Origin: an uncultured Planctomycetia bacterium
Lineage (GTDB): Bacteria > Omnitrophota > Gorgyraeia > Duberdicusellales > 4484-171
DNA: 64,000 bases
Reading direction: 5' to 3'
Assembly: GCA_964629655.1 (NCBI GenBank)
Contig: CAZVQU010000001.1
Coordinates: 420,056 to 484,055, forward strand
Shown: positions 31,026 to 64,000 of the stretch, one piece after another
How positions within the stretch are numbered: position 1 is the stretch's first letter
Layout of the letters: the number at the start of each line of letters is the position of its first letter
The notes under the pieces: model-generated
Database searches by the model: none
Seen by the model: the letters and a program-made list of their open reading frames with translations, nothing else
What the model was told of the DNA's origin: nothing
Made by a program: the position numbers and the translations under genes

Positions 31026-31058
31026 ATTATAAAACCAAAAAAAAGGAGGTGAATTGGT

Positions 31059-36100: not shown

Positions 36101-36436
36101 TTTACTAACTCCCCCCTTTGGGTAACCCCTCTATCCTGGCAGGACAGGTGGTTTTGCGTCTCCCAATTACTCGGGATTTGCCTTTGTCCGAAGAGACCTA
36201 ATTGTCAATCAGCTTACAATTAATTGATAACACATTTTTTGCAAAAAAACAAGTATATAAAAGGATAAAATTGCTTTTTTGCACTTTTACATTTAGACTA
36301 AAAAACCCAATACCTGATTGCCTTTTTTACTCTAGCTATGTTAGAAATGGGGGTTCTGGGAAAGATTTTACCTCAAAGCTGTGGGAAAAAATACCAGAAA
36401 GGTACTCATTCGGAAGTAGAGGGAGAGCAGAAAAAC

Positions 36437-50097: not shown

Positions 50098-51126
50098 TCA
50101 CTTCTCTAAAAGATATTCGGCTCTTAATTGGCCACAGGCAGCGTTAATATCCTGGCCCCGCGATTTCCTGAGAGTAAAAAATACGCCTCTTCTCTTTAGC
50201 TCTTGGCTAAAGATATCTACTGTCTCTTTATCAGGAGCTTTTAATTCAGAAGATGCTCCATTATAAGGGATTAAATTGGCTTTAGCATTAATTCTATTAA
50301 GTAGCTTTGCTAACTTCTTAGCATCATCTATACCAGTATTTATCCCCTCTATTAGGACACATTCAAAGGTAACCGGATCTTTAGAATCTTTGCTAAATTC
50401 TCTAATTGCCGGGATCAGTTCCTCTATTGGGTATTTTTTGTTAATCGGCATTAGTTTATTACGGATCTCATTATCAGCTGAATGTAGGGATACTGAGAGC
50501 TTTACCCCTAATTTCAATTTAGCTAATTTCTTAATCTCTGGGCAAAGACCACAAGTCGATAGGGATATTTTTCGTTTTGAAAAATTAATGCCTGCTGAAT
50601 CCATTAATATATTTATACTCTTAATAGTATTTTCAAAGTTATCTAAGGGTTCTCCGATACCCATAAAAACTATATTAGTTATCTTGCCGGGAGCCTTTAA
50701 GCCAGAAACGCTTAAATACTGGTTTACAATCTCGCCGGCAGTTAAGTTCCTCTTAAAGCCCTTTTCTCCACTGGCGCAAAACAAACATTTAAATTTACAA
50801 CCGACTTGGGTTGAAACACAGAGGGTATTCCTTGCCTTCTCAGGAATTACTACTGCCTCAATGGCTAAGTCATCCCTTAACTTAAATAAAAACTTCTCAG
50901 TTCTATCCGGGGATTTTTCTTTCTTCACAAGGCTTAATCTAAGAATGGAGAAATTCTCCTTTAAAAACTCTCTGGTCTTCTTAGAAAGATTGCTCATCAA
51001 ATCAAAATCTTGGACTCTCTTTGCATAAACCCATTCAAAGACTTGCCGGGCAGTGTAGGCAGGATAACCTTTTATCTTTAGAAAATCTTGCAGTTCTCCA
51101 AGAGTATAATTTTTTAAATCTTGCAT
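50098..51126 (-). CDS. rlmN: 23S rRNA (adenine2503-C2)/tRNA methyltransferase, radical SAM
   Basis: CxxxCxxC (CKFKCLFCASG). MGIGEPLDN motif. C-terminal Cys. Length 342 aa. Confidence 0.85.
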   Translation of the reverse strand: MQDLKNYTLGELQDFLKIKGYPAYTARQVFEWVYAKRVQDFDLMSNLSKKTREFLKENFSILRLSLVKKEKSPDRTEKFLFKLRDDLAIEAVVIPEKARNTLCVSTQVGCKFKCLFCASGEKGFKRNLTAGEIVNQYLSVSGLKAPGKITNIVFMGIGEPLDNFENTIKSINILMDSAGINFSKRKISLSTCGLCPEIKKLAKLKLGVKLSVSLHSADNEIRNKLMPINKKYPIEELIPAIREFSKDSKDPVTFECVLIEGINTGIDDAKKLAKLLNRINAKANLIPYNGASSELKAPDKETVDIFSQELKRRGVFFTLRKSRGQDINAACGQLRAEYLLEK

Positions 51127-51162
51127 AAGTGTGCTATTACCTTTATTTATTGTTGAATTTGC

Positions 51163-52191
51163 TTAAGCTTTATGCGGTTGGATTATTACTTTAAGCGAAT
51201 CTTCCCCTTTAGCAACAAGGCTAAACCCTAACCCTGCCTCGGCAAGGCTTAATTTGTGCGTAATCATCTTACCCACAGGCACTGCGCCACTACGAATCAA
51301 CTCCATTGCCACAATGGCATCTTGGGGACTATTACCATAAGAAGGCATAATTTTTATACCATTACGCCAAAAATCATTGACCGGAACAGGAAGAATAACC
51401 CCTGGCTCTGTAGGGGCAAAACATAGTATAGTTCCTCCTCGATCAACAGATTGCAAGGCCTGCTGGAAAGCTGATAAGGCTGAAGTACAAATAATTACAA
51501 GATCAGCAAGCCTGCCTTGATTAATCTGGCTCAAACGGGCCGGAACATCTTCTTTAGCAGATATTACTGAATCAGCTCCGAACTCCTTTGCCATCTTTAA
51601 ACGATGTTGGTTTACATCGGTAACTATTATCCGCTGGGCCCCTGTGGCCCGGGCTAAGAGCAAATGAATTAACCCTGAGATACCACCTCCGAGAATTAAT
51701 ACATCTTGGCCGGACTTTAGATTAGCTTCCCTTTGGCCCCGGACTACGCAGGCTAAAGGTTCAATAAAGGTTGCTTCTTCAAATGATATCTCATCCGGCA
51801 GGAGAAAGGTTCCTCTATCAACATTAATTGCCGGTACCTGTATGTATTGTGCAAAACCGCCGGGGAAAAAGTTCGTGGTATGCAGGGTCTGGCAAGCAGT
51901 ATGATAACCATTCAAACAATATCGACAAGTATTACAGGGAACATGGTGGGAGACACAGACTCTATCCCCTTGTTTGAAGCGGGTAATGCCTTCTCCGACT
52001 CCAACTACCTCACCAGCAACCTCATGGCCTAAAACAAGAGGGGCTTTTTTAATGCGGTACCACTGCATCACATCACTGCCGCAAATACCGCTAGCCTGTA
52101 CCTTTACCAAAAGCTCTCCTGCACCGATAGTTGGTGTAGGCAATTCCTCTAGCCGGACATCATTATTATTGTAATACATTGCGACCTGCAT
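51163..52191 (-). CDS. Zn-dependent alcohol dehydrogenase (MDR family; sorbitol/threonine dehydrogenase-like)
   Basis: GHEVAGEVVGVG Zn motif. Structural-Zn Cys cluster (CNTCRYCLNGYHTAC). Rossmann GGGISG. Confidence 0.7.
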   Translation of the reverse strand: MQVAMYYNNNDVRLEELPTPTIGAGELLVKVQASGICGSDVMQWYRIKKAPLVLGHEVAGEVVGVGEGITRFKQGDRVCVSHHVPCNTCRYCLNGYHTACQTLHTTNFFPGGFAQYIQVPAINVDRGTFLLPDEISFEEATFIEPLACVVRGQREANLKSGQDVLILGGGISGLIHLLLARATGAQRIIVTDVNQHRLKMAKEFGADSVISAKEDVPARLSQINQGRLADLVIICTSALSAFQQALQSVDRGGTILCFAPTEPGVILPVPVNDFWRNGIKIMPSYGNSPQDAIVAMELIRSGAVPVGKMITHKLSLAEAGLGFSLVAKGEDSLKVIIQPHKA

Positions 52192-52203
52192 ATAATTTTT
52201 CTC

Positions 52204-53067
52204 CTAAACAGATTGTTTACTGGCTACAGCACCACTCTTAATGCTATTAAATAATTCCTGTGCTTGATCAACCGTAGCATTTTCGTGTATGATTGCCTGT
52301 AGGCCTCTTGCTACTGCTACAGGATTAGGACTCTGCCAGACATTCCTTCCTAAGTTAATGCCAATAGCTCCTTTTTGCATGCCATCATAAACAAACTCAA
52401 AGACCTCACGTTCGGTCTTACATTTAGGCCCGCCAGCCATAACTACTGGCACCGGACAACCATCTACAACCTTATCAAAATCTTCACACCAATATGTTTT
52501 TACTATTCGCGCACCTAATTCTGCTGCAATGCGACAGCATAGGCCAAGATATCTGGCATCTCGTTTCTCCAGCTCTTTGCCTACAGCAGTAACTGCCATA
52601 ACCGGAATTCCATACCTCTCACACTCATTTACGAGACGGGCAAGATTTAGCAGTGTTTGACGTTCATAGTCGCTGCCAATAAAAACTGAAATCCCTACGG
52701 CAGCAGCGTTAAGGCGAACAACCTCCTCTACCGATGTGGTAATCTCTTCATTAGCTAAATCCTTACCTACCATGCTAGTGCCTCCAGATACCCTAAGGAT
52801 AATCGGTTTACTACCAATAGGGTCTATTGCTGAACGTAAGACCCCTCTAGTTGCAAAAAGGGCATCGCAAAAGGGAAGGAGAGGCTTAATGGTCTCTCCT
52901 GGTTTCTCCAAACACCTAGTAGGCCCTTGAAAATAACCATGGTCAATAGGCAAGAAAAAACAATGGCCGTCAGATTTGATAACTTGATTTAAACGATTTT
53001 GCATTCCCCAATCCATCTTTACACCTCCTAATGAGCACATCCCAAAGGGATAGTGCGAATTATCCAT
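52204..53067 (-). CDS. DhnA-family class I aldolase (FBP aldolase Ia / LsrF / ADH-synthase family, DeoC-like TIM barrel)
   Basis: DhnA/LsrF-type N-terminus (GHCFFLPIDHGYFQGP). Length ~270-287 aa. 8-nt overlap with the upstream ALDH gene. Confidence 0.6.
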   Translation of the reverse strand: MDNSHYPFGMCSLGGVKMDWGMQNRLNQVIKSDGHCFFLPIDHGYFQGPTRCLEKPGETIKPLLPFCDALFATRGVLRSAIDPIGSKPIILRVSGGTSMVGKDLANEEITTSVEEVVRLNAAAVGISVFIGSDYERQTLLNLARLVNECERYGIPVMAVTAVGKELEKRDARYLGLCCRIAAELGARIVKTYWCEDFDKVVDGCPVPVVMAGGPKCKTEREVFEFVYDGMQKGAIGINLGRNVWQSPNPVAVARGLQAIIHENATVDQAQELFNSIKSGAVASKQSV

Positions 53068-54550
53068 ACCAATAATTTACTAATGGTTTTGAGTCCTTAG
53101 TAGTATCTACTATGACATTTTTAAGATTTGTATACTCTAACAAACCTTGATCACCTAGTTCTTTACCGAATCCACTTTGCTTAAATCCACCATAAGTGAG
53201 CTGATTAAAAAACATGCCGTAAGTATTGATCCAAATCGTACCGGCATTAACTTTATTAGCTATATTTTTAGCCTTCTCAATATCTTTTGACCAAATACAA
53301 CCAGCAAGAGCAAAATCACTTCGGTTTGCCAATTCAATCGCTTCTTCTACCTTTGAAAATTTACTTATACAGACTACCGGACCAAAAATTTCTTCTTGAA
53401 AGATTGGCTCATCAGGTGAAACTCCCCCGAACACCGTAGGCTCAAAAAAGAACCCTTTTTCTAATCCCTCTTGGGAAGGGATTTTACCGCCCAATAATAA
53501 CTTTACACCACTGGCTTTAGCTTTCTCTGCATACTCAATAACTTTTTCTCTTTGCCATTGTGAAGCCAAAGGCCCCATTTGAGTTTCAAAGTCTAAACCA
53601 TTGCCTAACTTAATAGCTTTTGCTTTTTTAACAAACCCTTCGACGAATTTATCGTAAATGCTATCTTGCACTAAGATTCTTGACATCGCCGTACACATTT
53701 GCCCTTGATTCAAAAATATAGAGCACAAGGAACCATTAACTGCTAATTCCAAATCAGCATCTTTTAAAATAATACTAGCAGATTTACCTCCTAGCTCCAT
53801 AATCAACTTTTTTACATTTTTAGATGAATACTCTAAGATCTTTTTACCCACAATATTTGAACCAGTAAATGAAATCATATCTACTCGCTTATCTGAACAT
53901 AGTGGCTCACCGGCTTCCTCGCCTGGACCAGGCATGACATTAACCACTCCTTTAGGTAAACCTGCTTCATTGATAATCTTTGCTAACTCCAAAGCTGTAA
54001 GCGGGGTTAAACTTGAAGGTTTCAAAATAACTGCGTTTCCAGCTGCTAAGCTCTGAGCCAACTTCCAGGAAGCAATTAACAGTGGGTAGTTCCAGGGGAC
54101 AATCAAACCGACTACTCCTCTTGCCTGAGGTAGAAGCCGGGCTTTTGCCGATGAAACTTGGGATTTTACCTCTATGGTCTCCTCTTTTAGAATCCTTTCA
54201 AGATTATTACCGAAATATTTAAAAGTTTCAGCTGCAGAAGGTATATCCATAAAAGTTGATTCCTTAAGCGGCTTACCCGTATTTAAAGTCTCCAGTTCGG
54301 CCAATTCACCGCACTTTTCCAAAATACCTTGAGATATCTTAAGCAGGAATTCTTTTCTTTGTGCTAAGGAAATATCTCGCCAAGGCCCTTTATCAAAGGC
54401 ATCACGTGCAGCTTTAATTGCTAGATTCACATCTTCCCGAGAAGCTAAACTAACCTCAGCTATAGTTTCACCGGTAGCAGGATTAATTATTTTATTTTTA
54501 AATTTAGAATCCTTAAATTCTCCGTTAATGAATAAATTATAGGTTTTCAT
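53060..54550 (-). CDS. NAD(P)-dependent aldehyde dehydrogenase
   Basis: ALDH catalytic motifs ELGGKSA and GQMCTA. Length 496 aa. Confidence 0.85.
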   Translation of the reverse strand: MKTYNLFINGEFKDSKFKNKIINPATGETIAEVSLASREDVNLAIKAARDAFDKGPWRDISLAQRKEFLLKISQGILEKCGELAELETLNTGKPLKESTFMDIPSAAETFKYFGNNLERILKEETIEVKSQVSSAKARLLPQARGVVGLIVPWNYPLLIASWKLAQSLAAGNAVILKPSSLTPLTALELAKIINEAGLPKGVVNVMPGPGEEAGEPLCSDKRVDMISFTGSNIVGKKILEYSSKNVKKLIMELGGKSASIILKDADLELAVNGSLCSIFLNQGQMCTAMSRILVQDSIYDKFVEGFVKKAKAIKLGNGLDFETQMGPLASQWQREKVIEYAEKAKASGVKLLLGGKIPSQEGLEKGFFFEPTVFGGVSPDEPIFQEEIFGPVVCISKFSKVEEAIELANRSDFALAGCIWSKDIEKAKNIANKVNAGTIWINTYGMFFNQLTYGGFKQSGFGKELGDQGLLEYTNLKNVIVDTTKDSKPLVNYWYG

Positions 54551-55554
54551 CTTATTTTAACCTGCTTAAATAACTCGAATAAGCGCTTAAACGGTACATA
54601 CCAGCGAGACAACTGCCCTAGCTGACCTTTTAACTTCATTTTTCCTTGAGTAACAGCCACAAAAGGATCTACCTTGCCCAGAAAAACTAATTCCCAAATG
54701 TCCTCTGAAGCTGAAATTACAAAAGGTGCATTAAGATCAAATTCTAATTTTTTTATCTTTCCTTTTTCAAAAATAAATCTATACGATTTGTTGTCCTCGT
54801 CCAAGCTTATGGCTAACTCCAGAGTTAGGTCTAGCTCTTGGCCCTTTTTACTAATAAGCTCATCCTTATTAACCAACTCTACGATTGCCTGCACATGCTC
54901 TTTAGAAAACATCTTATAGCTGTCAGTTTTTTGGGTTAAATCCTGCTTCAAAGCCTTGTCTAAATCATCTAAAACTTCTCTTTTGAATAATCTAGCAACA
55001 CTGGCAATTTTTACTGCCTCTTCTAAAGTTTCAATCAAATCAAAACCATCCTTGAAACTTTGGCCTATGCTAATTACGCCATGATTTTTAATTACCGCTA
55101 GGTTATTAGATTTTAAAGCTTCAATTACTAACTCTGGTTTAGTCATACTTGGAGTTTCCTGCACAACAGCTTTTACATTGCCTAAATAGACTTGGGACTC
55201 AAAGGTTAAATTTTTAAGGTCAGAACATACAGAAAAATAGCCGTTGGCTAAAGGTGGATGGCAATGGATTACTGCTTTGGCTTCAAAACTCTCATAAATT
55301 AATCTATGCATAGGGAATTCTGTACTCAAACGATTGTTTTTTAAATCTTTCTCATTATTAAGATTAATTTTAATAATGTCTTCGGGTTTTAATTGGCCTA
55401 GGGATGTCCCGGTAGCCGTGATAAGAATATTGTCTTTGTCTAACCGGGCGCTTAAATTCCCTGACTTAGCAACTGCCAAATGCAGGTTTTGTAATTTCTC
55501 ACCGATTGCAATTATTTTTCGCTTTAACTGTTTTTCTCGGCCTAATACCATCAT
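54547..55554 (-). CDS. Class II aldolase/adducin-family protein fused to a C-terminal SCP2-like domain
   Basis: The N-terminal ~200 aa have class II aldolase signatures (HCHPP His cluster, GNLSAR). The C-terminal ~110 aa end in an SCP2-type motif (GKMKLKGQLGQLSRW). Confidence 0.55.
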   Translation of the reverse strand: MMVLGREKQLKRKIIAIGEKLQNLHLAVAKSGNLSARLDKDNILITATGTSLGQLKPEDIIKINLNNEKDLKNNRLSTEFPMHRLIYESFEAKAVIHCHPPLANGYFSVCSDLKNLTFESQVYLGNVKAVVQETPSMTKPELVIEALKSNNLAVIKNHGVISIGQSFKDGFDLIETLEEAVKIASVARLFKREVLDDLDKALKQDLTQKTDSYKMFSKEHVQAIVELVNKDELISKKGQELDLTLELAISLDEDNKSYRFIFEKGKIKKLEFDLNAPFVISASEDIWELVFLGKVDPFVAVTQGKMKLKGQLGQLSRWYVPFKRLFELFKQVKIR

Positions 55555-56504
55555 CTTACCTCTAGATATATATGCTTAGTAATAAACTTATTAGGAGTTA
55601 TATCAAATGCCGGATAATAAGCCTTTGCACCTTTGGGGGCAAGAGCTACCCCTTGATAGGTTGTAAGTTCCTTGTCCGGTCTTATTTCAATTTTTATATC
55701 TTCCCCAGTCTTTGCACCAGATAACGGAGCACAAAGCACATAAAAAGGAATTTTAAAGTATCTAGCTATCAAGGCAATCTGGTAAGTTCCAACTTTATTA
55801 GCAATATCCCCATTCCCAGCTAAATTATCTGAACCAACTATGACTTTATCAATTTTTCTCTCACTCATTACCTGCGCAACCATATTATCAGTTATTACTG
55901 TAACGTCAAAGCCTGAACGCATAAGCTCCCAGGCAGTAAGCCTTGAACCTTGTAAATAAGGTCGGGTCTCAGTAGCGAAAAAACGTAACTTCTTACCCTT
56001 AGCTTGGGCAAAATCAGCTATTAGAGGCAGGAGGCCGCTAATATTACAATGGGTAAGAACCACATCGCCACCTTTGAGTAATTTAGAAGCTTGTTTTGCT
56101 TGTTTAATCCGGGAATTTTTTAACATCTCTAAAAAACCCAATATAGCCTTATCCAGAGGCATACCTGCTTTATGCCAGCCTAAAACCATATTAGTTAAAT
56201 ATTTAAACGAAAGAGTGGGTCGAGTCGAGTTTATTGCTTTAGCAACCTTAGACAATGTAGGAGAAAGATTCTTCTTACTTTTATTATTCTTAATAACCAG
56301 AAGAAATATATACATAACTAAGATGACCTGTCCAACAGCCCGGGTTTTCATCTGGCGTATCGCCGAACAAGCTTGTAAGTAGTTTTTAGCCTTTATATAT
56401 TTTTCTTTCTGAGGCAATGAAGTCTCATCGAGTATATGAATAGTGTTACCCTTTAATTTAATTGGCCAAAATAAAGGTGAGTATTTTATATTTTTCTTAA
56501 CCAT
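55551..56504 (-). CDS. eIF-2B alpha/beta/delta-family sugar-phosphate isomerase (MtnA / ribose-1,5-bisphosphate isomerase-like)
   Basis: THCNISG, ETRPYLQGSRLTAWEL, VIVGSDNLAGNGDIANKVGTYQIA and FYVLCAP match the MtnA/e2b2 family. Confidence 0.75.
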   Translation of the reverse strand: MVKKNIKYSPLFWPIKLKGNTIHILDETSLPQKEKYIKAKNYLQACSAIRQMKTRAVGQVILVMYIFLLVIKNNKSKKNLSPTLSKVAKAINSTRPTLSFKYLTNMVLGWHKAGMPLDKAILGFLEMLKNSRIKQAKQASKLLKGGDVVLTHCNISGLLPLIADFAQAKGKKLRFFATETRPYLQGSRLTAWELMRSGFDVTVITDNMVAQVMSERKIDKVIVGSDNLAGNGDIANKVGTYQIALIARYFKIPFYVLCAPLSGAKTGEDIKIEIRPDKELTTYQGVALAPKGAKAYYPAFDITPNKFITKHIYLEVR

Positions 56505-56516
56505 CTTTTACACATT

Positions 56517-57140
56517 CTAGTTTTTAAGTTTTGCAATAATACTACAATAATTCCCAAATCTTTTACTTGGAATCATTACGCATCTTAATCCCACCGTATA
56601 ATAAGTTTTAACCCGCAAAGGTTTAAAACCAGCCTGAGATAAAAAACCAAGCCAGACTTCTAAAGACCTGTAAAAATGGCCTAAATCACGGTTAATAATC
56701 GTTTTAGAGAAAGGCAATTCCAAATAAAAATATCCGTTAGGCTTCAGGGATTTATTCACAAAATTGAAAGCAGTAGTTGGACATTCTACATGCTCAAAGA
56801 TATCGAAGGCAGTTACGACATCAAACTTCCCATCAAAAGGTATCCCCTCATTTATATCGCAGCATTTTATACGTTCTGGTCTAGAAACTATATTTTTAGC
56901 ATTTCCTACGGCGTATTCCGAAATATCTAATCCATGCACCTCAAAGTCTCTTTCAATTATCTTTATAAAAAATCCTAAGGCACATCCTATATCTAGTATT
57001 TTTCCTGAAGAAACCATTTCTTTTAGAATCTTTATTCTTCTTTTCCAGAATATTTTTGACCGTAAACCTTCGTAACCAAAAATATAGTTTGAATCTTTGC
57101 CCATGTAATATTCCCTAACGTATTTATTTTTAACCTTCAT
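56517..57140 (-). CDS. Class I SAM-dependent methyltransferase
   Basis: Motif I ILDIGCALGFF. An acidic residue at the end of β2 (HGLDISE). Confidence 0.6.
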   Translation of the reverse strand: MKVKNKYVREYYMGKDSNYIFGYEGLRSKIFWKRRIKILKEMVSSGKILDIGCALGFFIKIIERDFEVHGLDISEYAVGNAKNIVSRPERIKCCDINEGIPFDGKFDVVTAFDIFEHVECPTTAFNFVNKSLKPNGYFYLELPFSKTIINRDLGHFYRSLEVWLGFLSQAGFKPLRVKTYYTVGLRCVMIPSKRFGNYCSIIAKLKN

Positions 57141-57172
57141 AACTTCTGTCTAATCACCATTACAATAAATTT

Positions 57173-58063
57173 TCATTGGCTAAATATGTTAAAGAAGTTT
57201 TTCTGGGTAATTTTTTCCTTAACCTTATCTTCTAAAGTATCTAAGATCTCTAAATTTTTTTGTAAGTTTCCAGATACCGGATAGTCTGAACCCCAAAGAA
57301 TATGGTCTTGGCCAAATAAATCTAAAGCCAACTTGACATTGCCAGAAGATGCCCCGGATGTATCTACATATACTTCTTTTAGAATCTGGGAAGGTAACCT
57401 GCCTAAATCCTTAACTATCTTTCTTTCCCGTAGCATCATATAGACCCGATCGAACCTATTGCTTAGAAAAGGGACAACTCCGCCTAAGGACGCCAGAATA
57501 AACTTGACCTTGAATTTATCAAGTACCCCTTGCATCATAAGAAGCCCTAGAAAGGTAGATATATCCAAGCTGTACTCTAAAACCGGCATAAGCAAAGGAT
57601 CTTTTATCCGACTATAGCCAATAGGATTAATTGTCTGTGAATGAACAAAAATTGGCAAGTCATGCTTCTGGGCTGCTTCAAATAAAGGAAAGAGCTTATC
57701 GACTATAAACTCACCATTATAACTTGAGGCTAGATTTATTGCTCTAAACCCTCTGCTCTTTAATTCGGCTAACTCTAGGGAAATATTGTTTAAGTTTTCT
57801 ACATCAACCAGGCAAGCTGCGATTATCTTAGAATTCTCTTTTAAAATCTTCTCTGATTCCCTATTGTAGATTTCACTAACCCTTTTAAAACCACCCAATT
57901 TAAAATGGGCATCCGTAGAAGGATAGACTAAAAGGGCCTTATCAATGTTGTTACTATCTAAGAACTCATAGAGCTTATCCTTATCGGCCCAAATACCCTT
58001 GTAAAAAGTAGTATGCTCTGAGAGTTCTTGGGGAATAAAATGGATATGGCTATCAGCTAACAT
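57173..58063 (-). CDS. Amidohydrolase-2 family metal-dependent hydrolase (TIM barrel)
   Basis: N-terminal DSHIH metal-binding motif. Length ~296 aa. Asp near the C-terminus (WGSDYP). Confidence 0.5.
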   Translation of the reverse strand: MLADSHIHFIPQELSEHTTFYKGIWADKDKLYEFLDSNNIDKALLVYPSTDAHFKLGGFKRVSEIYNRESEKILKENSKIIAACLVDVENLNNISLELAELKSRGFRAINLASSYNGEFIVDKLFPLFEAAQKHDLPIFVHSQTINPIGYSRIKDPLLMPVLEYSLDISTFLGLLMMQGVLDKFKVKFILASLGGVVPFLSNRFDRVYMMLRERKIVKDLGRLPSQILKEVYVDTSGASSGNVKLALDLFGQDHILWGSDYPVSGNLQKNLEILDTLEDKVKEKITQKNFFNIFSQ

Positions 58064-58066
58064 AAC

Positions 58067-59527
58067 CTATACGTGCTTTTCTCCCTTAACAGCGCCCTCT
58101 TCCCACTTAGTTACGCCCTTCATTACATCTTGGAAGCATAGCTTAGCTAAGGGGTCAAAATTACTAGTCATAATCCTCTGGATTCGACCCGGCTTTGAGA
58201 AGAATTCTCTCATGCACCAGGCGCCTAATCTTCCGTAATCATCCAATTTGAGGTGTTCGGTGGCCATTACCGGATGTAGGAAATCCCACTTAAGAAAATC
58301 TATTTTTTTAGGATCAATCTCACCCTTCTTTATCCTCTGTCTCCAAATTGGAGAGTTCGGTGCCGGAGTAACATAACCTACCCACAAGATATCCGGATCA
58401 ACCTGATCAGTAAATTCAAATCTCTGCTTTATGATAGCTTCGGTGTCACCATCAAAGCCCATCATAATATCAGCAACAATAGCAATATTGTTCTTTCGCA
58501 AAATCTCAATGGTCTTCTTTATCTGTTCAATAGTTATTCCCTTAGCAATTTTCTTTAATTCTGAAGCAGTAGTAACCTCAATGCCGAATACGCCGGTAAA
58601 CAAACCGGACTCTCTCATCAAAGGCAAAATCTCTTCACAATTAACCCAATCAATAGCCCTGCCTAAAGAAACCCATTTAATTGGGTTTTCTTTTTCTAGC
58701 TTTAACCGACAGAACTTCTCTACTCTTTCTGGGTCAACATTAAAATTATCATCCTGGATTACTACTACTTTTACCCCATACTCTTTATGAAGTACTTCTA
58801 GCTCTTCAATTACTCTCTCTGGAGACTTTGCCCGCCATTTTAAGAAATCTTCCGGATGGCGCGGATCATACTGATCCCACTCATAACAAAAAGTACAAGC
58901 TGAAGGGCATCCTCGCGAAGTTACCATCTCAACAAATGGCTTCCAATGAGTATGACCAACATACTTATCCATAGGGAATAAATCATATGCCGGAAGTGGT
59001 AACTTATCTAAATCTGTATTCAAAAGTCTATGTGGCCCCATAACTGCCTTACCCTCTACTCTTGAACTTACTCCGGCAATATCCTTTATCTCTTCTGACT
59101 TCCCTATCTTATTAATTAAATCACAAAAGGCCTCTTCTTCGCCCATAACTACATAGTCAATAGCTGGGTTACTATCCAAAGTAAATACTGGCATTGAAGA
59201 ATACCATAAGCCTCCGGCAATTATCTTGGTATCGGGGAGAACTTCCTTTATTGACTTTGCTGACTGGTTAAAGTAATGAAGAATAGCAAATCCTCCATAG
59301 GAATGAAGCATGTCTCCGAGGACAACTATATCCGGATTCTTTTCTTTCACTTTTTTAATCATTTCCTCGTTTTCTATTTCTAAGGCTTTACAATCTAAAA
59401 CCTCTAAATCCTTATACCCTTTTTCTCTAGCATAAGCAGCCCATTGAGCATAAAGCTGGTTAGGCCCTAAGTGTTTACCGTGTGTTGCCCAAGCGCCCGA
59501 CTTCGGTGTTAAAAATAAAATTTGCAT
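58067..59527 (-). CDS. Class B radical SAM enzyme with N-terminal cobalamin-binding domain
   Basis: B12-binding Rossmann-like N-terminal domain (IVVLGDMLHSYGG). CxxxCxxC (RGCPSACTFC) at ~residue 210. Length 486 aa. Confidence 0.8.
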   Translation of the reverse strand: MQILFLTPKSGAWATHGKHLGPNQLYAQWAAYAREKGYKDLEVLDCKALEIENEEMIKKVKEKNPDIVVLGDMLHSYGGFAILHYFNQSAKSIKEVLPDTKIIAGGLWYSSMPVFTLDSNPAIDYVVMGEEEAFCDLINKIGKSEEIKDIAGVSSRVEGKAVMGPHRLLNTDLDKLPLPAYDLFPMDKYVGHTHWKPFVEMVTSRGCPSACTFCYEWDQYDPRHPEDFLKWRAKSPERVIEELEVLHKEYGVKVVVIQDDNFNVDPERVEKFCRLKLEKENPIKWVSLGRAIDWVNCEEILPLMRESGLFTGVFGIEVTTASELKKIAKGITIEQIKKTIEILRKNNIAIVADIMMGFDGDTEAIIKQRFEFTDQVDPDILWVGYVTPAPNSPIWRQRIKKGEIDPKKIDFLKWDFLHPVMATEHLKLDDYGRLGAWCMREFFSKPGRIQRIMTSNFDPLAKLCFQDVMKGVTKWEEGAVKGEKHV

Positions 59528-59562
59528 CTGACCTTCCTCCTTTTTTTACTTAAAATGTTAAA

Positions 59563-60330
59563 CTATTTTCCCGGGTGATTTTGTTTAAACGGTATCACTG
59601 GCTTCTTCCAAGGCGTTTGCTGGTTTATCACTGCTAACTCTAAAGGGCAGGTGTTGCCGCTTTGAGTAAGAGCAAACAAAACTGTATCAGCTATTGCCTC
59701 CGGCTCCATTAATCTTCCCTCTTCTTGCGATATATCTTTTAGCTTACCGGTTAAGGGGGTTCTGGTTACTCCCGGAAATATTGAAGTAACTTTAATCCCA
59801 AAATCGCGCATCTCCCAGAAAAGCCCCTTAGCAAAAGCTCTCAGGGCGACTTTTAAAGAAGTATAAACTATGAAGTTGCGCGGTGGAGGATCAACCATAA
59901 CTGAACCACTGGTAATATTTACAATATGTCCGCCGCCAGCATCTTTCATCTGATTAACAACTAAGCGCGAAAGCATAACGTAGCTATAATAATTTGTGTA
60001 CATGATTTTTTCTACATCCTCTACTGGCTGCTGCCAAAAAGGATGTTGGCTTGAGACTCCGGCCCCATTAACAACAACATCAATTCTCCCAAATTTCTCT
60101 AAGGTCTTACTGACTAAATTCTCTAAATTACTCTGCTTGGTAACATCACACTTTATGCATAATACTTTATCTTTTTCAGGAAGTGCTTTCTTGATATCTT
60201 CTAGGATCTCCTCTCTTCTTGCGGCAAGAACAAGGCTAGCGCCTTGAGCGGCTAACTTGTTAACTACACTTTTGCCAATCCCACCGCTTGCTCCAGTTAC
60301 AATGCAAACTTTCTCCCTTAACTTACCCAT
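59563..60330 (-). CDS. Short-chain dehydrogenase/reductase (SDR)
   Basis: TGASGGIGKSV cofactor motif. NGAG. YxxxK (YTSLK). Confidence 0.8.
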   Translation of the reverse strand: MGKLREKVCIVTGASGGIGKSVVNKLAAQGASLVLAARREEILEDIKKALPEKDKVLCIKCDVTKQSNLENLVSKTLEKFGRIDVVVNGAGVSSQHPFWQQPVEDVEKIMYTNYYSYVMLSRLVVNQMKDAGGGHIVNITSGSVMVDPPPRNFIVYTSLKVALRAFAKGLFWEMRDFGIKVTSIFPGVTRTPLTGKLKDISQEEGRLMEPEAIADTVLFALTQSGNTCPLELAVINQQTPWKKPVIPFKQNHPGK

Positions 60331-60339
60331 ACTTCCTCC

Positions 60340-61833
60340 CTACTTTTTAATATCCTTATTTTTAGATATACTTTTAATTCTATCTTGAGATATAATAGTC
60401 GTCCCCCAGGATTTTCCTGCGTGTATTTCCAAAACTATTTTTTCATCTGTCTCTTGTAATATAATTCCTTCAATCATCCGCCCGTTTTTCAGGTAGATCT
60501 TATCAAAAAGGGCTATTTTTCTAAAAGATAAATCAGTTGTTTTTTCTAAACGAGTAATATCTTTATCAATAAACCCTGAGTAATCAGACAATGACCTTGC
60601 TTCTTCTAAAGCCATTAAAGCCTCTATTTTATTCCCCAAGTTTTCTTCAATTCTGGAAAGAGTTAGGTGCGCCGGCCTCCAAGAAGGGTGGTGCTTTATA
60701 ATATCCTCTACGATCTTCTTTGCCTTACTATTATCACCAACCGCGCTATAAGAATAAGCTATGCTATTAAGAATATTGATATCATCAGGAATGATTTCAA
60801 GTTTCTTGCGGCAATTTTCTATTTCTATGTAATATTCTTTCATTGCCTCTTCTTTCTTACCCTGTTGAGTGTAAATATCTCCTAAATCATTATGAATGTA
60901 GAGGTATCCAGGTAAATATTCAAGTATTTTTTTATACTCTACTAAAGCCTTATCAAGTAGTCCCTCGTCGCGATAAAGACTTGCCAAGCTGTAATTAAAA
61001 TTAAGATTATCCGGTAAAATCTCTAATGCATTTTTTAGATGAACAATTGCTTCGCTATAATCCTCGATATTCATAAGGGCAAGACCTAAACTATTATGGA
61101 GATAACTATTCTCGGAATCGATGAGTAAACCGGATTTATATTCGGAAATAGCTTTTTCATAATTGCCTTTTTTATAATAAAGATCGCCTAAAAGAATTCT
61201 GGCTAAAAGAAAATCGGATTTTATCTGTAAAACTTCTTTTAATAATTCTTCAGCCTGAACATAATTGTTATCAGCGATATAAAAACGGCTTAAAAAATAA
61301 TATGGTTGGATATAATTTGGGCCAATTTTTAAAGCTTTATTTAGCAGAAGATAAGCTTCCGCTTTATCGCCAGCCGAATAAGCTTCAATGCCTTCGTTTA
61401 CGCAAAATAGTATATATCCAGAGTAGACCTCTTCGTGAAGGCCTTTTATCGCTGCCTCAGCTGGAAATTCGGCTTCAGCTCTTTTAAGAAGGCTAAGCGC
61501 CTCTTTATACATCTGTCTATTCAAATATATCCGGCCAAGGGCAGAATAAACATTCGCATTTTTGGGTTGAGTTTGAATTGAATTTTTATATTCTTTGATT
61601 GCAGCATCTTCATCCTCTAATTTCATATAAACGTTAGCCAAATTAGAATAGAGAACAGAAGAAGATTCAACCTTTAGGGCTTTCTGAAAATACGATATTG
61701 CTTCTTCATACAAATCCTGCTTGAAGCAACCAACGCCTTTATTATTAAGAAAAGCGGCTAAGTGAGGCTTGCTAGTATACGCTAAAACTAGCAACAGGAT
61801 AAAAACGAGCGACCACTCAATTATTCTCTTCAT
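60340..61833 (-). CDS. Secreted TPR-repeat protein
   Basis: Signal peptide or TM anchor. At least 8 TPR-like repeats (AISYFQKAL, AIKEYKNSIQ, and others). Confidence 0.6.
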   Translation of the reverse strand: MKRIIEWSLVFILLLVLAYTSKPHLAAFLNNKGVGCFKQDLYEEAISYFQKALKVESSSVLYSNLANVYMKLEDEDAAIKEYKNSIQTQPKNANVYSALGRIYLNRQMYKEALSLLKRAEAEFPAEAAIKGLHEEVYSGYILFCVNEGIEAYSAGDKAEAYLLLNKALKIGPNYIQPYYFLSRFYIADNNYVQAEELLKEVLQIKSDFLLARILLGDLYYKKGNYEKAISEYKSGLLIDSENSYLHNSLGLALMNIEDYSEAIVHLKNALEILPDNLNFNYSLASLYRDEGLLDKALVEYKKILEYLPGYLYIHNDLGDIYTQQGKKEEAMKEYYIEIENCRKKLEIIPDDINILNSIAYSYSAVGDNSKAKKIVEDIIKHHPSWRPAHLTLSRIEENLGNKIEALMALEEARSLSDYSGFIDKDITRLEKTTDLSFRKIALFDKIYLKNGRMIEGIILQETDEKIVLEIHAGKSWGTTIISQDRIKSISKNKDIKK

Positions 61834-61864
61834 AGTAAATTGTTTATGCTACTGACTTTTAGTT

Positions 61865-62989
61865 TCAGTTAACTATTTTTCTTAAGTTGGAACCGAGAAA
61901 AAATATGCTTATACCGACTACAATGAATAAAGCCTTAAACCCTGCTATCGATACTAGCAATCCTCCTAAAAAAGCACCCAGGCCTCCAAAGCTAAAACGT
62001 AAAGCGCTATTTAAACTTGAAGCATCACGTAAAATCCTATCAGGGAATAAGGTAAGATGGGATGCTAATCCAACATGAGTAAGAGCCATGCCTGCACCCC
62101 ACAAGGTTATCATTAAAAAAATTAGCTTATAATTTCCTATAAAGACAAGAGAAAAAGCAAATGCACTCATTAGGACAAAACCAATGCTGCTTATCTTGAT
62201 ATTTCCGAAACGAGTACTTAAAAAGCCTCCGGAAAATTCGAATACTATCGCAGCTAGAGTGGAAACGGTAAAAACTGAACTTATAACTATTTGGGATAGC
62301 GAAAAACTCTCACTCAAATAAATACCTAAACGTTGCTGTAAGCCGTGGTAAAGGAGGCTTCCTAACATAACTACGATAAAAAAATTAACTGCTTTTTTAT
62401 CTTTTAAGGTATCAAGATAACTTATCTTGAATTTATCCACCCTGAAATCAAAGTCTTCTAGTCGAGTGAGTACTAAAATAAATACCAGCAAGCTTGCAAT
62501 TGATGGTATTAGATAAAGCCGTAAGGGAAAGTCGGAAAAGAATCCGCTTAAGAACACACTGATTAAGTTTGAAATATAAGAAAAAGCAAAAAACACCCCG
62601 ATAGATTTTGCTTTATCCTTAATAGGGATAACCTTGCCGATAGTTATAAGAACCAAAGGCACAAAACTACAACCAAAACAACCCATAAGAAATCTAGACA
62701 TAAAGGCCTGCTCTATGCTCTTTGATAAACTAAACCAAAGAGAAGATAAAAAGAATCCTAAAGTTGTAATCAGAAGAATCTTTCTCACCCTGACTATCCT
62801 GGTAAAAGGACCCCAAATAAGGGCGAATACTCCATAAGGAAGCATATAAAGCCAAGTGAGTGGCAAAGCATGATCCTTAGCTATCCCAAAGTAAACAGCT
62901 ATCGATGGTATTAGAGCTGCCGTAGCCGCAACACCAAAGGATATCACAAAAAACATCAGGCAAAAGATGTAAAAACTTATCTTGGACAT
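61865..62989 (-). CDS. MFS transporter
   Basis: About 12 TM helices. Length 374 aa. Confidence 0.65.
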   Translation of the reverse strand: MSKISFYIFCLMFFVISFGVAATAALIPSIAVYFGIAKDHALPLTWLYMLPYGVFALIWGPFTRIVRVRKILLITTLGFFLSSLWFSLSKSIEQAFMSRFLMGCFGCSFVPLVLITIGKVIPIKDKAKSIGVFFAFSYISNLISVFLSGFFSDFPLRLYLIPSIASLLVFILVLTRLEDFDFRVDKFKISYLDTLKDKKAVNFFIVVMLGSLLYHGLQQRLGIYLSESFSLSQIVISSVFTVSTLAAIVFEFSGGFLSTRFGNIKISSIGFVLMSAFAFSLVFIGNYKLIFLMITLWGAGMALTHVGLASHLTLFPDRILRDASSLNSALRFSFGGLGAFLGGLLVSIAGFKALFIVVGISIFFLGSNLRKIVN

Positions 62990-63417: not shown

Positions 63418-63441
63418 AAGCCTCCTTTTTTTAAAAAATAA

Positions 63442-63927: not shown

Positions 63928-64000
63928 AGGTATCTCATCAGCTGTTTTTGAAGGCCTACCCTCAGACTTACTCCCGTAATGGAAGGAATAATCAAGGTGA

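Follow-up and report, generated by a model that had tools for sequence, protein, structure and literature searches.

A five-gene cluster of an Omnitrophota-like bacterium as a candidate DHAP shunt extended by an LsrF-type thiolase and a zinc dehydrogenase

A cluster of five genes, G1 to G5, was analyzed in a DNA stretch of 64,000 nucleotides (the window). On the basis of genomic context and chemistry, we tentatively read this cluster as an extended DHAP shunt for 5'-deoxynucleoside by-products of SAM, to which an oxidative, CoA-dependent branch has been added. The inputs would be the 5'-deoxyadenosine that radical SAM enzymes release and, probably, methylthioadenosine as well; from these a phosphorylase, encoded beside the isomerase gene in relatives and not in the window, would free 5-deoxy- or 5-methylthio-ribose-1-phosphate. 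G1 would convert these compounds to the ribulose-1-phosphate form. In the canonical branch a, G2 would cleave the ketose-1-phosphate into DHAP and acetaldehyde or (methylthio)acetaldehyde, and G3 would convert the aldehyde to the acid. In the oxidative, thiolytic branch b, G5 would use NAD+ to oxidize the C4 methyl-carbinol of 5-deoxyribulose-1-phosphate to 3-hydroxy-2,4-pentanedione-5-phosphate (P-HPD), and G4, acting like E. coli LsrF, would transfer the acetyl group of P-HPD to CoA, yielding DHAP and acetyl-CoA. As branch b gives acetyl-CoA, free acetaldehyde would be avoided and a thioester conserved. The substrates, the flux direction and how the two branches share the work are those that we infer from context and chemistry; the family assignments, the intact catalytic residues and the conservation of the G4/G5 pair and the five-gene set are observed. 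If this reading is correct, deoxy-sugar waste of SAM enzymes is recycled to DHAP and acetyl-CoA in an Omnitrophota-like anaerobe. In the literature, we found no publication describing an oxidative CoA-dependent extension of the DHAP shunt.

Results

Layout of the gene cluster

An ORF listing of the window revealed five minus-strand ORFs at exactly the limits given by the first-pass annotation (Table 1). All five have strong Pfam matches and are therefore regarded as genes rather than chance ORFs, which confirms the annotation in this respect. The genes had also been described as tightly overlapping. This is true of G1/G2 and G2/G3, which share a 4-nt ATGA overlap each, but not of the other two junctions: G4 starts at ATG 53016, with AGGAGG located 7 nt upstream and a length in agreement with homologues (260-283 aa), hence 43 nt lie between G3 and G4, and G4 and G5 are spaced by 12 nt. 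G1-G5 belong to a longer run of co-directional genes separated by short gaps (50098-64000). A promoter and terminator scan revealed sites no more frequently than in shuffled sequence; operon limits are thus not defined. The reported absence of kinase and phosphorylase genes from the window holds as far as the searches reach: neither was detected by Pfam scans covering nearly all ORFs of 100 aa or more, four of which had no Pfam match of any kind, and tblastn with the phosphorylase of relatives as query gave no match.

Table 1. Genes of the cluster and their conserved upstream neighbors
Gene	Coordinates	Strand	Length	Assignment	Pfam match or remark
G1	55551-56504	minus	317 aa	MtnA-like (5-substituted) ribose-1-phosphate isomerase	IF-2B, 1.9e-56
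G2	54547-55554	minus	335 aa	Class II metal-dependent aldolase with C-terminal SCP2-like domain	Aldolase_II, 9.8e-33
G3	53060-54550	minus	496 aa	NAD(P)-dependent non-acylating aldehyde dehydrogenase	Aldedh, 6.5e-169
G4	ORF 52204-53067; revised 52204-53016	minus	287 aa; revised 270 aa	LsrF-type DHAP-releasing thiolase, DeoC/DhnA fold	DeoC/LacD, 1.1e-27
G5	51163-52191	minus	342 aa	Zn-dependent secondary-alcohol dehydrogenase, Tdh/polyol-dehydrogenase type, probably NAD+-specific	ADH_N + ADH_zinc_N
SAM methyltransferase	56517-57140	minus			Conserved upstream neighbor
Amidohydro_2	57173-58063	minus			Conserved upstream neighbor
B12-binding radical SAM enzyme	58067-59527	minus			Conserved upstream neighbor
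SDR	59563-60330	minus			Conserved upstream neighbor

Isomerase, aldolase and aldehyde dehydrogenase

G1 reached 243 and 227 bits with the NCBIfam MtnA models, short of their equivalog cut-offs (271 and 279), and passed the eIF-2B_rel subfamily model (204 against 186). The ribose-1,5-bisphosphate isomerase model (123 bits) and aIF-2B (70 and 62 bits) scored lower, and the best PDB matches were MtnA of T. maritima (184 bits) and B. subtilis (160 bits). G1 keeps the catalytic Cys, in THCN, and the catalytic Asp, in GSDN. Hence, the description as an MtnA-like isomerase made at first reading stands; the missed equivalog cut-offs and the lack of the 5-7 residue loop that follows the Cys in MtnA count against the role proposed here.

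G2 consists of an Aldolase_II domain (residues 13-184) and a weakly matching SCP2 domain (247-313, E 1.2e-4), a fusion shared by over 120 homologues, the majority of them from Omnitrophota. Its earlier identification as a class II aldolase was corroborated by the intact metal-binding and catalytic residues, a Glu and three His as in FucA and DrdA. The AF2 model (pLDDT 85.9) matched, with its N-terminal domain, FucA with a TM-score normalized by target length of 0.85 and DrdA with 0.76-0.77. G3 remained under all NCBIfam equivalog cut-offs, the best being BADH (534 against 669), and its best PDB matches were betaine-aldehyde and class 1/2 aldehyde dehydrogenases.

An LsrF-type protein and its dehydrogenase partner

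G4 had been annotated as a DhnA-family class I aldolase, which is correct at the superfamily level. More specifically, it is of LsrF type: it passed the NCBIfam P-HPD thiolase (LsrF) model NF006081 with 358 bits (cut-off 297) and failed the ADH-synthase model with 188 bits (cut-off 299). An FBP-aldolase/ADH-synthase type enzyme was ruled out by these two results, which also make the suggested function as a second aldolase forming 6-deoxy-5-ketofructose-1-phosphate (DKFP) unlikely. G4 shares 47% identity with E. coli LsrF and retains D57, H58, K203, G226, G227, G253, and R254, with N in place of D251 and L in place of M252. The Asn at the Asp251 position and an identity of only 47% count against an LsrF-like role.

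The best NCBIfam matches of G5 were Tdh (194 bits) and IolM (175 bits), both under cut-off, and sorbitol dehydrogenases and Tdh were its best PDB matches. The catalytic Cys/His/Glu, the GxGxxG...TD motif, and the four Cys of the structural zinc recur in 59 orthologues of G5. The Asp after the second strand of the nucleotide-binding fold suggests use of NAD+ and an oxidative role.

The LsrF-like gene and the dehydrogenase gene are adjacent in 70 of the 73 assessable loci, which belong to Omnitrophota, Planctomycetota, Chloroflexota, Thermodesulfobacteriota, Nitrospirota, Zixibacteria, Ignavibacteria, and others; family members with 74-93% identity were found across strictly anaerobic phyla. Furthermore, the dehydrogenase also adjoins LsrF-like proteins that are 50, 48, and 44% identical to G4, and their dehydrogenases, compared for two of the three, are 55% identical to G5. 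Across phyla, G5 thus stays with the LsrF-like gene as its fixed partner and is not, as had been thought, a free-standing aldehyde-processing enzyme. Together with the LsrF type of G4, this turns the presumed two aldolases into one aldolase and a dehydrogenase/thiolase pair. Such pairs of an "AI-2 thiolase" and a zinc dehydrogenase are very widespread and unstudied, and databases label them as quorum-sensing machinery.

Related loci

All five genes occur together, in permuted order, in 16 of the 82 LsrF-carrying loci covered by this comparison, with identities of G1-G3 down to 35-37%. In six of these 16 loci, a nucleoside phosphorylase gene lies directly upstream of the isomerase gene. A PNP_UDP_1 phosphorylase gene overlaps the isomerase gene start in L044, L047, L055, L060, and L068, and in the separately fetched loci L087 and L088 the overlap is 4 nt. 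With PNP_UDP_1 upstream of isomerase and aldolase in six loci, the trio that defines the DHAP shunt is complete in relatives. The shunt logic proposed in the first-pass annotation is supported in part; the presumed second aldolase is of LsrF type.

The four upstream neighbors listed in Table 1 are likewise found ahead of the five genes in L001, L003, L007, L010, L012, L037, L044, L055, L076, L087, and L089; in the window, the methyltransferase gene sits where relatives have the PNP_UDP_1 phosphorylase gene. The cluster is flanked by two radical SAM genes, the B12-binding one upstream and rlmN downstream. Additionally, an acetate kinase gene is located directly upstream of the LsrF gene in L025, and the LsrF/dehydrogenase pair is followed by an AMP-forming ligase gene in L042, L044, L047, and L055. 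The flanking radical SAM genes, the kinase, and the ligase provide circumstantial support for the proposed pathway.

Discussion

One link between G1 and the G4/G5 pair is pure chemistry: oxidation of 5-deoxyribulose-1-phosphate (CH2OP-CO-CHOH-CHOH-CH3) at C4 gives CH2OP-CO-CHOH-CO-CH3, which is P-HPD, the compound named in the NCBIfam title of the G4 family. P-HPD is the established substrate of LsrF (Marques 2014, as cited in PMC7828210). In most phyla, the pair is found among unrelated genes with neither isomerase nor phosphorylase nearby; the 5-deoxypentose substrate is thus tied to it only via the Omnitrophota-type clusters and the chemistry. Furthermore, the redundancy of branches a and b for 5-deoxyribulose-1-phosphate counts against our reading, as do the model scores of the relatives' phosphorylase given below, which make ordinary ribonucleosides a possible source.

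G1-G3 might form a plain DHAP shunt, with the LsrF-like protein and the dehydrogenase as an independent housekeeping module acting on another phosphorylated ketose. The solitary pairs of most phyla accord with such a module. In Omnitrophota, synteny extends over the whole region, rlmN included, so the linkage could be inherited; part of this synteny may indeed be inherited rather than functional. We nevertheless consider an unrelated neighbor unlikely, since the five genes co-occur despite permutation, insertions of toxin-antitoxin and defense genes, and the low G1-G3 identities, and since the product of G1 is one oxidation away from the known LsrF substrate. Moreover, several further phyla also have a class II aldolase gene next to the pair (L006, L011, L025, L030, L069, L084, L094), and L038 has one as an aldolase-SDR fusion.

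Quite unlikely is the catabolism of nucleoside ribose, in which ribose-1-phosphate from a uridine or purine-nucleoside phosphorylase would be converted by G1 to ribulose-1-phosphate, by G2 to DHAP and glycolaldehyde and by G3 further to glycolate, or by G5 and G4 to DHAP and glycolyl-CoA. It would fit the phosphorylase of the relatives, which scored best with uridine phosphorylase (122 bits) and DeoD (109) and not with MTAP (28), all below cut-off, and which keeps a "VHL" motif resembling the "FHL" of E. coli uridine phosphorylase, the His of which contacts the 5'-OH. It would also fit the weak match of G2 to the haloarchaeal ribulose-1-phosphate aldolase model (65 bits, cut-off 300; the L084 aldolase reached 119 bits) and the promiscuity of the methionine-salvage pathway towards ribose described in a review (PMC6302742). 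On the other hand, G1 resembles MtnA far more than it does ribose-1,5-bisphosphate isomerase, acetyl-CoA is a useful central metabolite and glycolyl-CoA is not, and the nearest characterized relatives of G5 (Tdh, butanediol dehydrogenase) oxidize methyl carbinols. Besides, a mutase of the phosphoglucomutase/phosphomannomutase family encoded in the window could already send ribose-1-phosphate to the pentose phosphate pathway. With ribose as substrate, the reactions of G2 and G3 would correspond to those that end the haloarchaeal non-carboxylating pentose bisphosphate pathway.

A cycle in which DHAP catalyzes the conversion of aldehydes to acyl-CoA appears very unlikely. Here, the aldolase would join an aldehyde, for example acetaldehyde, to DHAP, the dehydrogenase would oxidize C4, and the LsrF-like protein would release acyl-CoA and DHAP; the three enzymes would jointly equal a CoA-acylating aldehyde dehydrogenase, the isomerase only feeding the same intermediate. 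Loci of unrelated phyla (L006, L011, L025, L030, L084, L094) that have LsrF, dehydrogenase, and class II aldolase genes with neither an isomerase nor a kinase gene, and the reported free reversibility of the DrdA reaction in vivo (PMC6079011) speak for it. So does L038, where an aldolase-SDR fusion (NF006196, 998 bits, cut-off 831) directly follows the LsrF-like gene and replaces the Zn-dehydrogenase, as fusions usually join consecutive steps. However, single-enzyme acylating aldehyde dehydrogenases are common, which makes the benefit doubtful, G3 would be redundant, and about 60 loci contain the pair with no aldolase gene alongside.

A route to aromatic amino-acid precursors, with G4 making or using DKFP from a 5-deoxy sugar as a DhnA-type aldolase/transaldolase and G5 making the 5-keto group, is highly improbable. 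In favor, G4 has the fold of M. jannaschii ADH synthase and is about 35% identical to it (151 bits), conversion of 5-deoxyribulose-1-phosphate to DKFP was proposed for this archaeon (PMC6079011), and the aldolase/dehydrogenase/LsrF triad of L006 lies 2.6 kb upstream of trpEGDCF. Against this stand the model scores of G4 and the six carbons of DKFP as compared to five in the isomerase product; in more than 90 loci, moreover, neither dehydroquinate synthase II nor other aromatic-pathway genes were recurrent neighbors. Genuine degradation of autoinducer-2, with G4 cleaving P-HPD from phospho-AI-2 as in E. coli, would agree with the LsrF equivalog model, the database names of homologues, and the reading of a Syntrophobacter fumaroxidans homologue in a transcriptome paper (PMC10787695), but is extremely improbable given that LsrK, LsrG, the LsrACDB transporter, and LsrR are absent from the window and from all of the more than 90 loci examined and that the constant partner is a dehydrogenase, which the Lsr pathway does not use.

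Comparison with known systems

The DHAP shunt, or 5-deoxyribose disposal pathway, comprises DrdK or MtnP, DrdI/MtnA, and DrdA/Ald2 (Beaudoin 2018, PMC6079011; also North 2017). The cluster shares with it an isomerase of the MtnA family with a class II aldolase after it, in relatives preceded by a phosphorylase, the expected products DHAP and a two-carbon aldehyde, and a proposed role in disposing of by-products of radical SAM enzymes and polyamines. It differs in that the window lacks kinase and phosphorylase, the aldolase carries an SCP2-like domain, and an aldehyde dehydrogenase and the thiolase/dehydrogenase pair always stand beside the shunt genes; acetyl-CoA and NADH, not free aldehyde, are the predicted extra products.

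M. jannaschii ADH synthase (MJ0400) has the DhnA-type TIM-barrel Schiff-base fold common to G4, and a link to 5-deoxyribulose-1-phosphate was likewise proposed for its DKFP route, whereas G4 fails its model, the dehydroquinate synthase II partner is absent, and the carbon count does not fit. Bifunctional proteins of the RhaEW/YuxG type (NCBIfam PRK08324 series), to which the L038 fusion belongs, also combine a class II aldolase and a dehydrogenase for 6-deoxy- or 5-deoxy-ketose-1-phosphate chemistry, but the window encodes two separate proteins with a dehydrogenase of the Zn/MDR and not the SDR type.

Tdh with Kbl, which yields glycine and acetyl-CoA, and IolM with IolN of Thermotoga inositol catabolism form a beta-dicarbonyl compound that then undergoes retro-Claisen cleavage. 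As proposed for G5 and G4, a medium-chain Zn dehydrogenase oxidizes a hydroxyl beta to a carbonyl or carboxyl group and an enzyme encoded by a neighboring gene cleaves the C-C bond; Tdh and IolM are also the two best family matches of G5, both below cut-off. Their substrates are an amino acid and inositol instead of a ketose phosphate, and the PLP-dependent Kbl and the hydrolase IolN are unrelated to LsrF.

G4 has the same fold as LsrF, the CoA-dependent P-HPD thiolase of the E. coli/Salmonella Lsr system (Marques 2014; structures 3GKF and 4P2V), and it keeps the Lys that forms the Schiff base, the Asp that acts as general base, and the residues that bind the phosphate. Outside an Lsr operon context, with a dehydrogenase partner in place of LsrK and LsrG, G4 would carry out the identical reaction, P-HPD + CoA to DHAP + acetyl-CoA, on P-HPD that would derive from a 5-deoxy sugar phosphate and not from AI-2.

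Organization of the gene cluster

An ORF listing of the window recovered, with identical boundaries, the five minus-strand genes that the first-pass annotation had described as a cluster. These genes, designated G1 to G5, each matched a Pfam family with E-values between 1e-24 and 1e-169. The tight overlap ascribed to all of them was found for G1/G2 and G2/G3, which share 4 nt each (ATGA), but not for G3/G4 and G4/G5. The predicted start codon of G4 is most likely the ATG at position 53016, because AGGAGG is located 7 nt upstream and the resulting protein fits the length of 260-283 aa seen in hundreds of homologues; with this start, the gap between G3 and G4 is 43 nt. The spacer between G4 and G5 comprises 12 nt and contains GGAG.

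G1 to G5 are enclosed by a co-directional array reaching from rlmN to the window end. A scan for consensus promoters and terminators returned sites no more numerous than in shuffled sequence; therefore, operon limits cannot be set by this means. An Rfam scan of the whole window revealed one tRNA and a distant c-di-GMP riboswitch only; a SAM, SAH or cobalamin riboswitch upstream, which would tie the cluster to SAM metabolism, was absent.

Positions of genes and features in the window and in comparison loci (L numbers) of relatives carrying LsrF-like genes
Feature	Sequence	Position	Strand	Remarks
G1, MtnA-like isomerase	window	55551-56504	-	Pfam IF-2B
G2, class II aldolase	window	54547-55554	-	Pfam Aldolase_II, weak SCP2
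G3, aldehyde dehydrogenase	window	53060-54550	-	Pfam Aldedh
G4, LsrF-type protein	window	52204-53067	-	extent as ORF; Pfam DeoC/LacD
G5, Zn-dehydrogenase	window	51163-52191	-	Pfam ADH_N, ADH_zinc_N
rlmN	window	50098-51126	-	
SAM-dependent methyltransferase	window	56517-57140	-	directly upstream of G1
Upstream array	window	56517-64000	-	in order outward: SAM methyltransferase, Amidohydro_2, B12-binding radical SAM enzyme, SDR, TPR protein, MFS transporter, SRPBCC polyketide cyclase, PF04199 cyclase (cut by window end)
Triose-phosphate isomerase/PGK/GAPDH	window	6971-9982	-	DHAP use
1718-aa ORF	window	20137-25293	-	sole Pfam match ChaN/Tiki haem-binding domain, residues 434-532
MetH, B12-dependent methionine synthase	window	26206-28671	-	
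Plus-strand block	window	29634-35516	+	sole plus-strand block of the region
87-aa ORF	window	35517-35780	-	downstream of RF03167 aptamer; hydrophobic N-terminus
79-aa ORF	window	35773-36012	-	downstream of RF03167 aptamer
c-di-GMP-I-GGC riboswitch aptamer	window	36117-36191	-	RF03167, 60.3 bits, gathering score 59
2-oxoacid:ferredoxin oxidoreductase	window	39875-42191	-	three subunits
DXS	window	42384-44252	-	
Class II aldolase/short-chain dehydrogenase fusion	L038	10850-12871		673 aa, directly after LsrF-like gene
Genes beside distant LsrF-like gene	L092	3950-8837		second DeoC-family gene, acetyl-CoA carboxylase carboxyltransferase subunits, phosphofructokinase
Toxin-antitoxin and defence genes	L001/L002	12140-15478		within or just after the cluster
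Toxin-antitoxin and defence genes	L087	11026-12699, 15096-15735		within or just after the cluster

The genes upstream of G1 look like a small-molecule biosynthetic cluster. The B12-binding radical SAM enzyme is BchE-like (200 bits, cut-off 481) and would itself generate 5'-deoxyadenosine. The Amidohydro_2 protein had been considered as a nucleoside deaminase; this was dropped, since its resemblance is weak and directed to decarboxylases of the ACMSD/IDCase/LigW type. The upstream array and the salvage genes are conserved together across Omnitrophota, and an ACP and a ketosynthase are added to the array in relatives. The slot occupied by the methyltransferase holds a methyltransferase also in L076; neither a methyltransferase nor a phosphorylase is found there in L001 and L007. 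In L044, L047, L055, L060, L068, and L087, this slot is taken by a PNP_UDP_1 nucleoside phosphorylase gene.

Elsewhere in the window, the plus-strand block contains three ORFs without a Pfam match (463, 208, and 265 aa) and ends with a 958-aa protein carrying an SdrD_B-like C-terminal domain; it possibly encodes a surface or outer-membrane system. DXS, MetH, triose-phosphate isomerase/PGK/GAPDH, and the 2-oxoacid:ferredoxin oxidoreductase are housekeeping functions that bear on the pathway proposed below; the last of these points to an anaerobic lifestyle of the host.

Isomerase G1, aldolase G2, and aldehyde dehydrogenase G3

The DHAP shunt proceeds from a kinase or phosphorylase via an MtnA/DrdI-type isomerase with catalytic Cys and Asp to a class II metal-dependent aldolase of the FucA/DrdA/Ald2 type. 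G1 is predicted to be such an isomerase. Its best family models are those of MtnA with 243 and 227 bits, slightly below the equivalog cut-offs of 271 and 279, and it passed the subfamily model eIF-2B_rel. A PDB search identified MtnA of T. maritima (184 bits) and B. subtilis (160 bits) as the best solved relatives. The Cys of a THCN motif and the Asp of a GSDN motif align with the catalytic residues of B. subtilis MtnA, which we take to be C160 and D240, and 5-7 residues are missing from the loop following the catalytic Cys. Both residues and the shortened loop are common to all 13 cluster isomerases compared. A role as eIF2B translation-factor subunit, the possibility against which the first-pass annotation had set its reading, is contradicted by these catalytic residues and by low scores with aIF-2B models (70 and 62 bits) and eIF2B structures (≤59 bits). 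G1 is also not a ribose-1,5-bisphosphate isomerase (TIGR00511, 123 bits, cut-off 314; PDB structures, 87-93 bits); the archaeal AMP-RuBisCO salvage pathway was thus rejected, its partner genes for RuBisCO and AMP phosphorylase being absent from the window.

G2 retains the Glu and three His residues of FucA and DrdA and would accordingly be classed, by residues and fold, as a putative aldolase of the FucA/DrdA/Ald2 type. An AlphaFold model built from 39 homologues (pLDDT 85.9) superposes with its N-domain on T. thermophilus FucA with a TMt (TM-score normalised by target length) of 0.85 and on B. thuringiensis DrdA (6BTD/6BTG) with 0.76-0.77. Residues 218-329 form a separate alpha/beta C-domain in agreement with the SCP2 Pfam match; a fold search with the model, dominated by the aldolase domain, returned no independent match for it. 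G2 reaches no NCBIfam equivalog cut-off; therefore, aldolase, dehydratase, and epimerase activities are indistinguishable by sequence. G3 is a predicted generic non-acylating aldehyde dehydrogenase. The subfamilies of G1 and G2 have more than 120 members each at >63% identity and are essentially restricted to MAGs labelled Omnitrophota.

LsrF-type protein G4 and dehydrogenase G5

G4 is a member of NCBIfam NF006081 (LsrF, 3-hydroxy-5-phosphonooxypentane-2,4-dione thiolase) with 358.3 bits at a cut-off of 297, and BLASTP revealed 47% identity to E. coli LsrF across 262 residues. In LsrF, Lys203 forms the Schiff base, phosphate is bound by His58, Gly226, Gly227, Gly253, and Arg254, and a role is also described for Asp57 (PMC2728841). 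An alignment showed that all seven residues are present in G4, and they are invariant in 77 family members; substitutions in G4 are Asp251 to Asn and Met252 to Leu. By model membership and active-site residues G4 is thus LsrF-type, and CoA-dependent acetyl transfer from 3-hydroxy-2,4-pentanedione-5-phosphate (P-HPD) is its predicted activity. The model of archaeal class I FBP aldolase gave 123 bits (cut-off 430). A DKFP pathway with G4 as ADH synthase is contradicted by the model scores (TIGR01949, 188 bits, cut-off 299; NF005556, 199 bits, cut-off 241), by the neighbours, among which no conserved dehydroquinate synthase II partner occurs, and by the carbon count. Degradation or processing of autoinducer-2 (AI-2) was rejected as well, since LsrK, LsrG, LsrACDB, and LsrR are wholly absent from the window and from the recurrent neighbours in more than 90 loci.

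In G5, a Zn-dependent medium-chain dehydrogenase, both zinc sites are present, as is the Asp residue of NAD-type enzymes. Among characterised proteins it is closest to Tdh, IolM, sorbitol dehydrogenases, and butanediol dehydrogenase; an equivalog cut-off was not reached. It is similar to L-threonine 3-dehydrogenase but not a member of that family (NF003808, 194 bits, cut-off 380; TIGR00692, 190 bits, cut-off 458).

Distribution of the LsrF/dehydrogenase pair

A scan with one genome per species identified at least 581 relatives of G4. All of them are metagenome-assembled genomes, for which taxon labels are used as deposited; two archaea-binned contigs are included. The best 80 of these at least 581 relatives share 74-89% identity across phyla and are labelled Omnitrophota, Planctomycetia, Chloroflexota/Anaerolineae/Dehalococcoidia, Syntrophales, Desulfobacterales, Nitrospirae, Ignavibacteria, Zixibacteria, Brocadiales, Saganbacteria, Latescibacterota, Verrucomicrobiota, and Elusimicrobiota. 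Neighbourhood statistics refer to these 80 loci and to a small number of distant ones; ORFs were called and clustered in 86 loci. In 70 loci, an orthologue of G5 adjoins the LsrF-like gene. Of the 12 exceptions, nine are truncated at a contig end, so that three true exceptions are left, among them L038. No other neighbour family was frequent in the loci examined; the pair therefore constitutes a self-standing two-gene module in most phyla.

In L038, from an Anaerolineales MAG, a bifunctional protein stands in for the usual Zn-dehydrogenase and matches NF006196 with 998 bits (cut-off 831), which hints that NF006196 fusion proteins in general may act together with LsrF-type thiolases.

A search of 1.84 billion cluster representatives with G4 returned only 190 at E ≤1e-30. 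Beyond G4's own cluster, full-length neighbours have 50, 48, and 44% identity, followed by ADH-synthase-like proteins at ≤39%. Since a Zn-dehydrogenase gene is adjacent or one gene off at all three distant LsrF-like representatives (55% identity to G5 in the two of the three compared), the pairing extends as far as the remotest LsrF-like proteins sampled, and it is the Lsr context of enterobacteria that looks exceptional. One of the three loci also encodes a 188-aa class II aldolase. In L092, the locus with 50% identity to G4, a 186-aa ORF sits between the LsrF-like gene and its Zn-dehydrogenase gene.

The complete set of G1 to G5 co-occurs in 16 loci (L001-L004, L007, L010, L012, L037, L043, L044, L047, L052, L055, L060, L068, L076). 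The aldehyde dehydrogenase gene is relocated behind the G5 orthologue in six of these, and in four of the 16 the G1-G3 proteins have 35-37% identity to those of the window. The cluster is intact also in the separately fetched loci L087/L088, despite an inserted SLFN/AlbA gene and a MazE/PIN pair. Genes inserted in relatives are of the types ParE/PhD, HEPN AbiU2, SLFN-AlbA, and MazE/PIN, the metabolic genes being retained. A divergent cluster type (L012, L037, L043, L052) encodes a 157-167 aa protein with a weak IF-2B match (Pfam E 6e-5) between isomerase and aldolase, and a class IV aminotransferase gene lies upstream of the isomerase gene in L012, L037, L052, and L076; the cluster of the window has neither.

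The first-pass annotation had noted that the window lacks a kinase or phosphorylase gene. We also found no enzyme forming a pentose-1-phosphate in the 64 kb, neither among the window genes nor by a tblastn search with the phosphorylase of relatives. In L044, L047, L055, L060, L068, and L087/L088, a gene encoding a 249-aa PNP_UDP_1 phosphorylase overlaps the isomerase start. Phosphorylase, isomerase, and class II aldolase are the defining set of the DHAP shunt (PMC6079011); this trio is therefore complete in these loci.

Proposed pathway and alternatives

Family assignments, catalytic residues, and gene linkage are the observations from which every substrate named here is predicted. G1 would convert 5-deoxyribose-1-phosphate to 5-deoxyribulose-1-phosphate (CH2OP-CO-CHOH-CHOH-CH3) as an MtnA/DrdI-type isomerase. 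Oxidation of the C4 hydroxyl group of this product gives CH2OP-CO-CHOH-CO-CH3, which is P-HPD, and dehydrogenases of the G5 type oxidise methyl carbinols and polyol secondary alcohols. Tdh and IolM, the two best family matches of G5, each make a beta-dicarbonyl which is cleaved by a neighbouring enzyme via retro-Claisen chemistry; Tdh together with Kbl yields glycine and acetyl-CoA, and the partner of IolM is IolN. E. coli LsrF converts P-HPD and CoA to DHAP and acetyl-CoA (Marques 2014, cited in PMC7828210). Because of the identity of the C4 oxidation product with the LsrF substrate, the type of G5, and the analogy to Tdh and IolM, we propose a route via G1, G5, and G4 that would yield DHAP, acetyl-CoA, and NADH.

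In parallel, the canonical route via G1 and G2 is predicted to convert 5-deoxyribose-1-phosphate or methylthioribose-1-phosphate to DHAP and an aldehyde, from which G3 would form the acid. The aldolase branch may handle methylthioribulose-1-phosphate, which lacks a methyl carbinol at C4; such a division of labour between the aldolase and thiolase branches is purely inferential. The specific chemistry of G5 and G4 is less certain than the processing of a phosphorylase-derived pentose-1-phosphate by the cluster.

An acyl-CoA cycle is a less likely alternative: DHAP would act catalytically, and LsrF, dehydrogenase, and class II aldolase would together convert an aldehyde to its acyl-CoA. This triad recurs in several phyla, the class II aldolase adjoining the LsrF/dehydrogenase pair outside the Omnitrophota in L006, L011, L025, L030, L069, L084, and L094, and both this recurrence and the aldolase-dehydrogenase fusion of L038 agree with such a cycle. 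At L025 an aldehyde dehydrogenase gene also lies beside the pair, with an acetate kinase gene upstream. Alternatively, ordinary ribonucleosides may be degraded. The phosphorylase of relatives is not MTAP-like and looks closer to uridine phosphorylase or DeoD, so ribose-1-phosphate and ribulose-1-phosphate may be the real substrates, in the manner of the final reactions of the haloarchaeal pentose bisphosphate pathway. Finally, the LsrF/dehydrogenase pair may have a housekeeping function of its own, unrelated to the shunt genes and linked to them only through descent in Omnitrophota; rlmN is conserved downstream, so part of the synteny is inherited. An alternative synthesis of DXP from acetyl-CoA and DHAP followed by reduction was rejected for this organism, since a canonical DXS gene in the window makes it unneeded.

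Discussion

Radical SAM enzymes form their largest sets in strict anaerobes, and the disposal of inhibitory 5'-deoxyadenosine by these organisms is understood only in part. The authors who described the DHAP shunt concluded that further disposal routes must exist (PMC6079011). With the proposed route via G1, G5, and G4, the cluster is a concrete candidate: two added enzymes would turn the shunt intermediate into acetyl-CoA instead of toxic acetaldehyde. The proposal also provides a first functional hypothesis for the strongly conserved LsrF/dehydrogenase pair, with its at least 581 LsrF-like relatives.

Current annotation assigns this pair to quorum sensing. An LsrF homologue of Syntrophobacter fumaroxidans was read as an AI-2 receptor from annotation alone (PMC10787695), a case which shows that the present label has a practical cost. 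We tentatively raise a broader idea, which we consider rather unlikely as a whole: the pair, in many cases joined by a class II aldolase, might be an ancient and near-ubiquitous module of strict anaerobes that converts 5-deoxy-pentulose-1-phosphate to DHAP and acetyl-CoA, with its substrate formed either from 5'-deoxyadenosine or by trapping acetaldehyde on DHAP in an aldol reaction. The radical SAM by-product would then be removed chiefly by this module in the organisms richest in radical SAM enzymes, and the AI-2-degrading LsrF of enterobacteria would be a late recruit from it. If true, the name 'AI-2 thiolase' given to hundreds of proteins in anaerobes would be uninformative on quorum sensing.

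We found no published link of LsrF-type enzymes to 5-deoxy sugars in a search that left most subscription journals outside its coverage, so that one may have been missed. The literature on 5-deoxyribulose and that on 5-deoxyribose since 2021 likewise yielded no dehydrogenase for 5-deoxyribulose-1-phosphate and no oxidative or thiolytic route. As judged from sequence, the part of the cluster comprising isomerase, aldolase, and aldehyde oxidation is of the known DHAP-shunt kind; what appears to be new is the LsrF/dehydrogenase branch attached to these genes.
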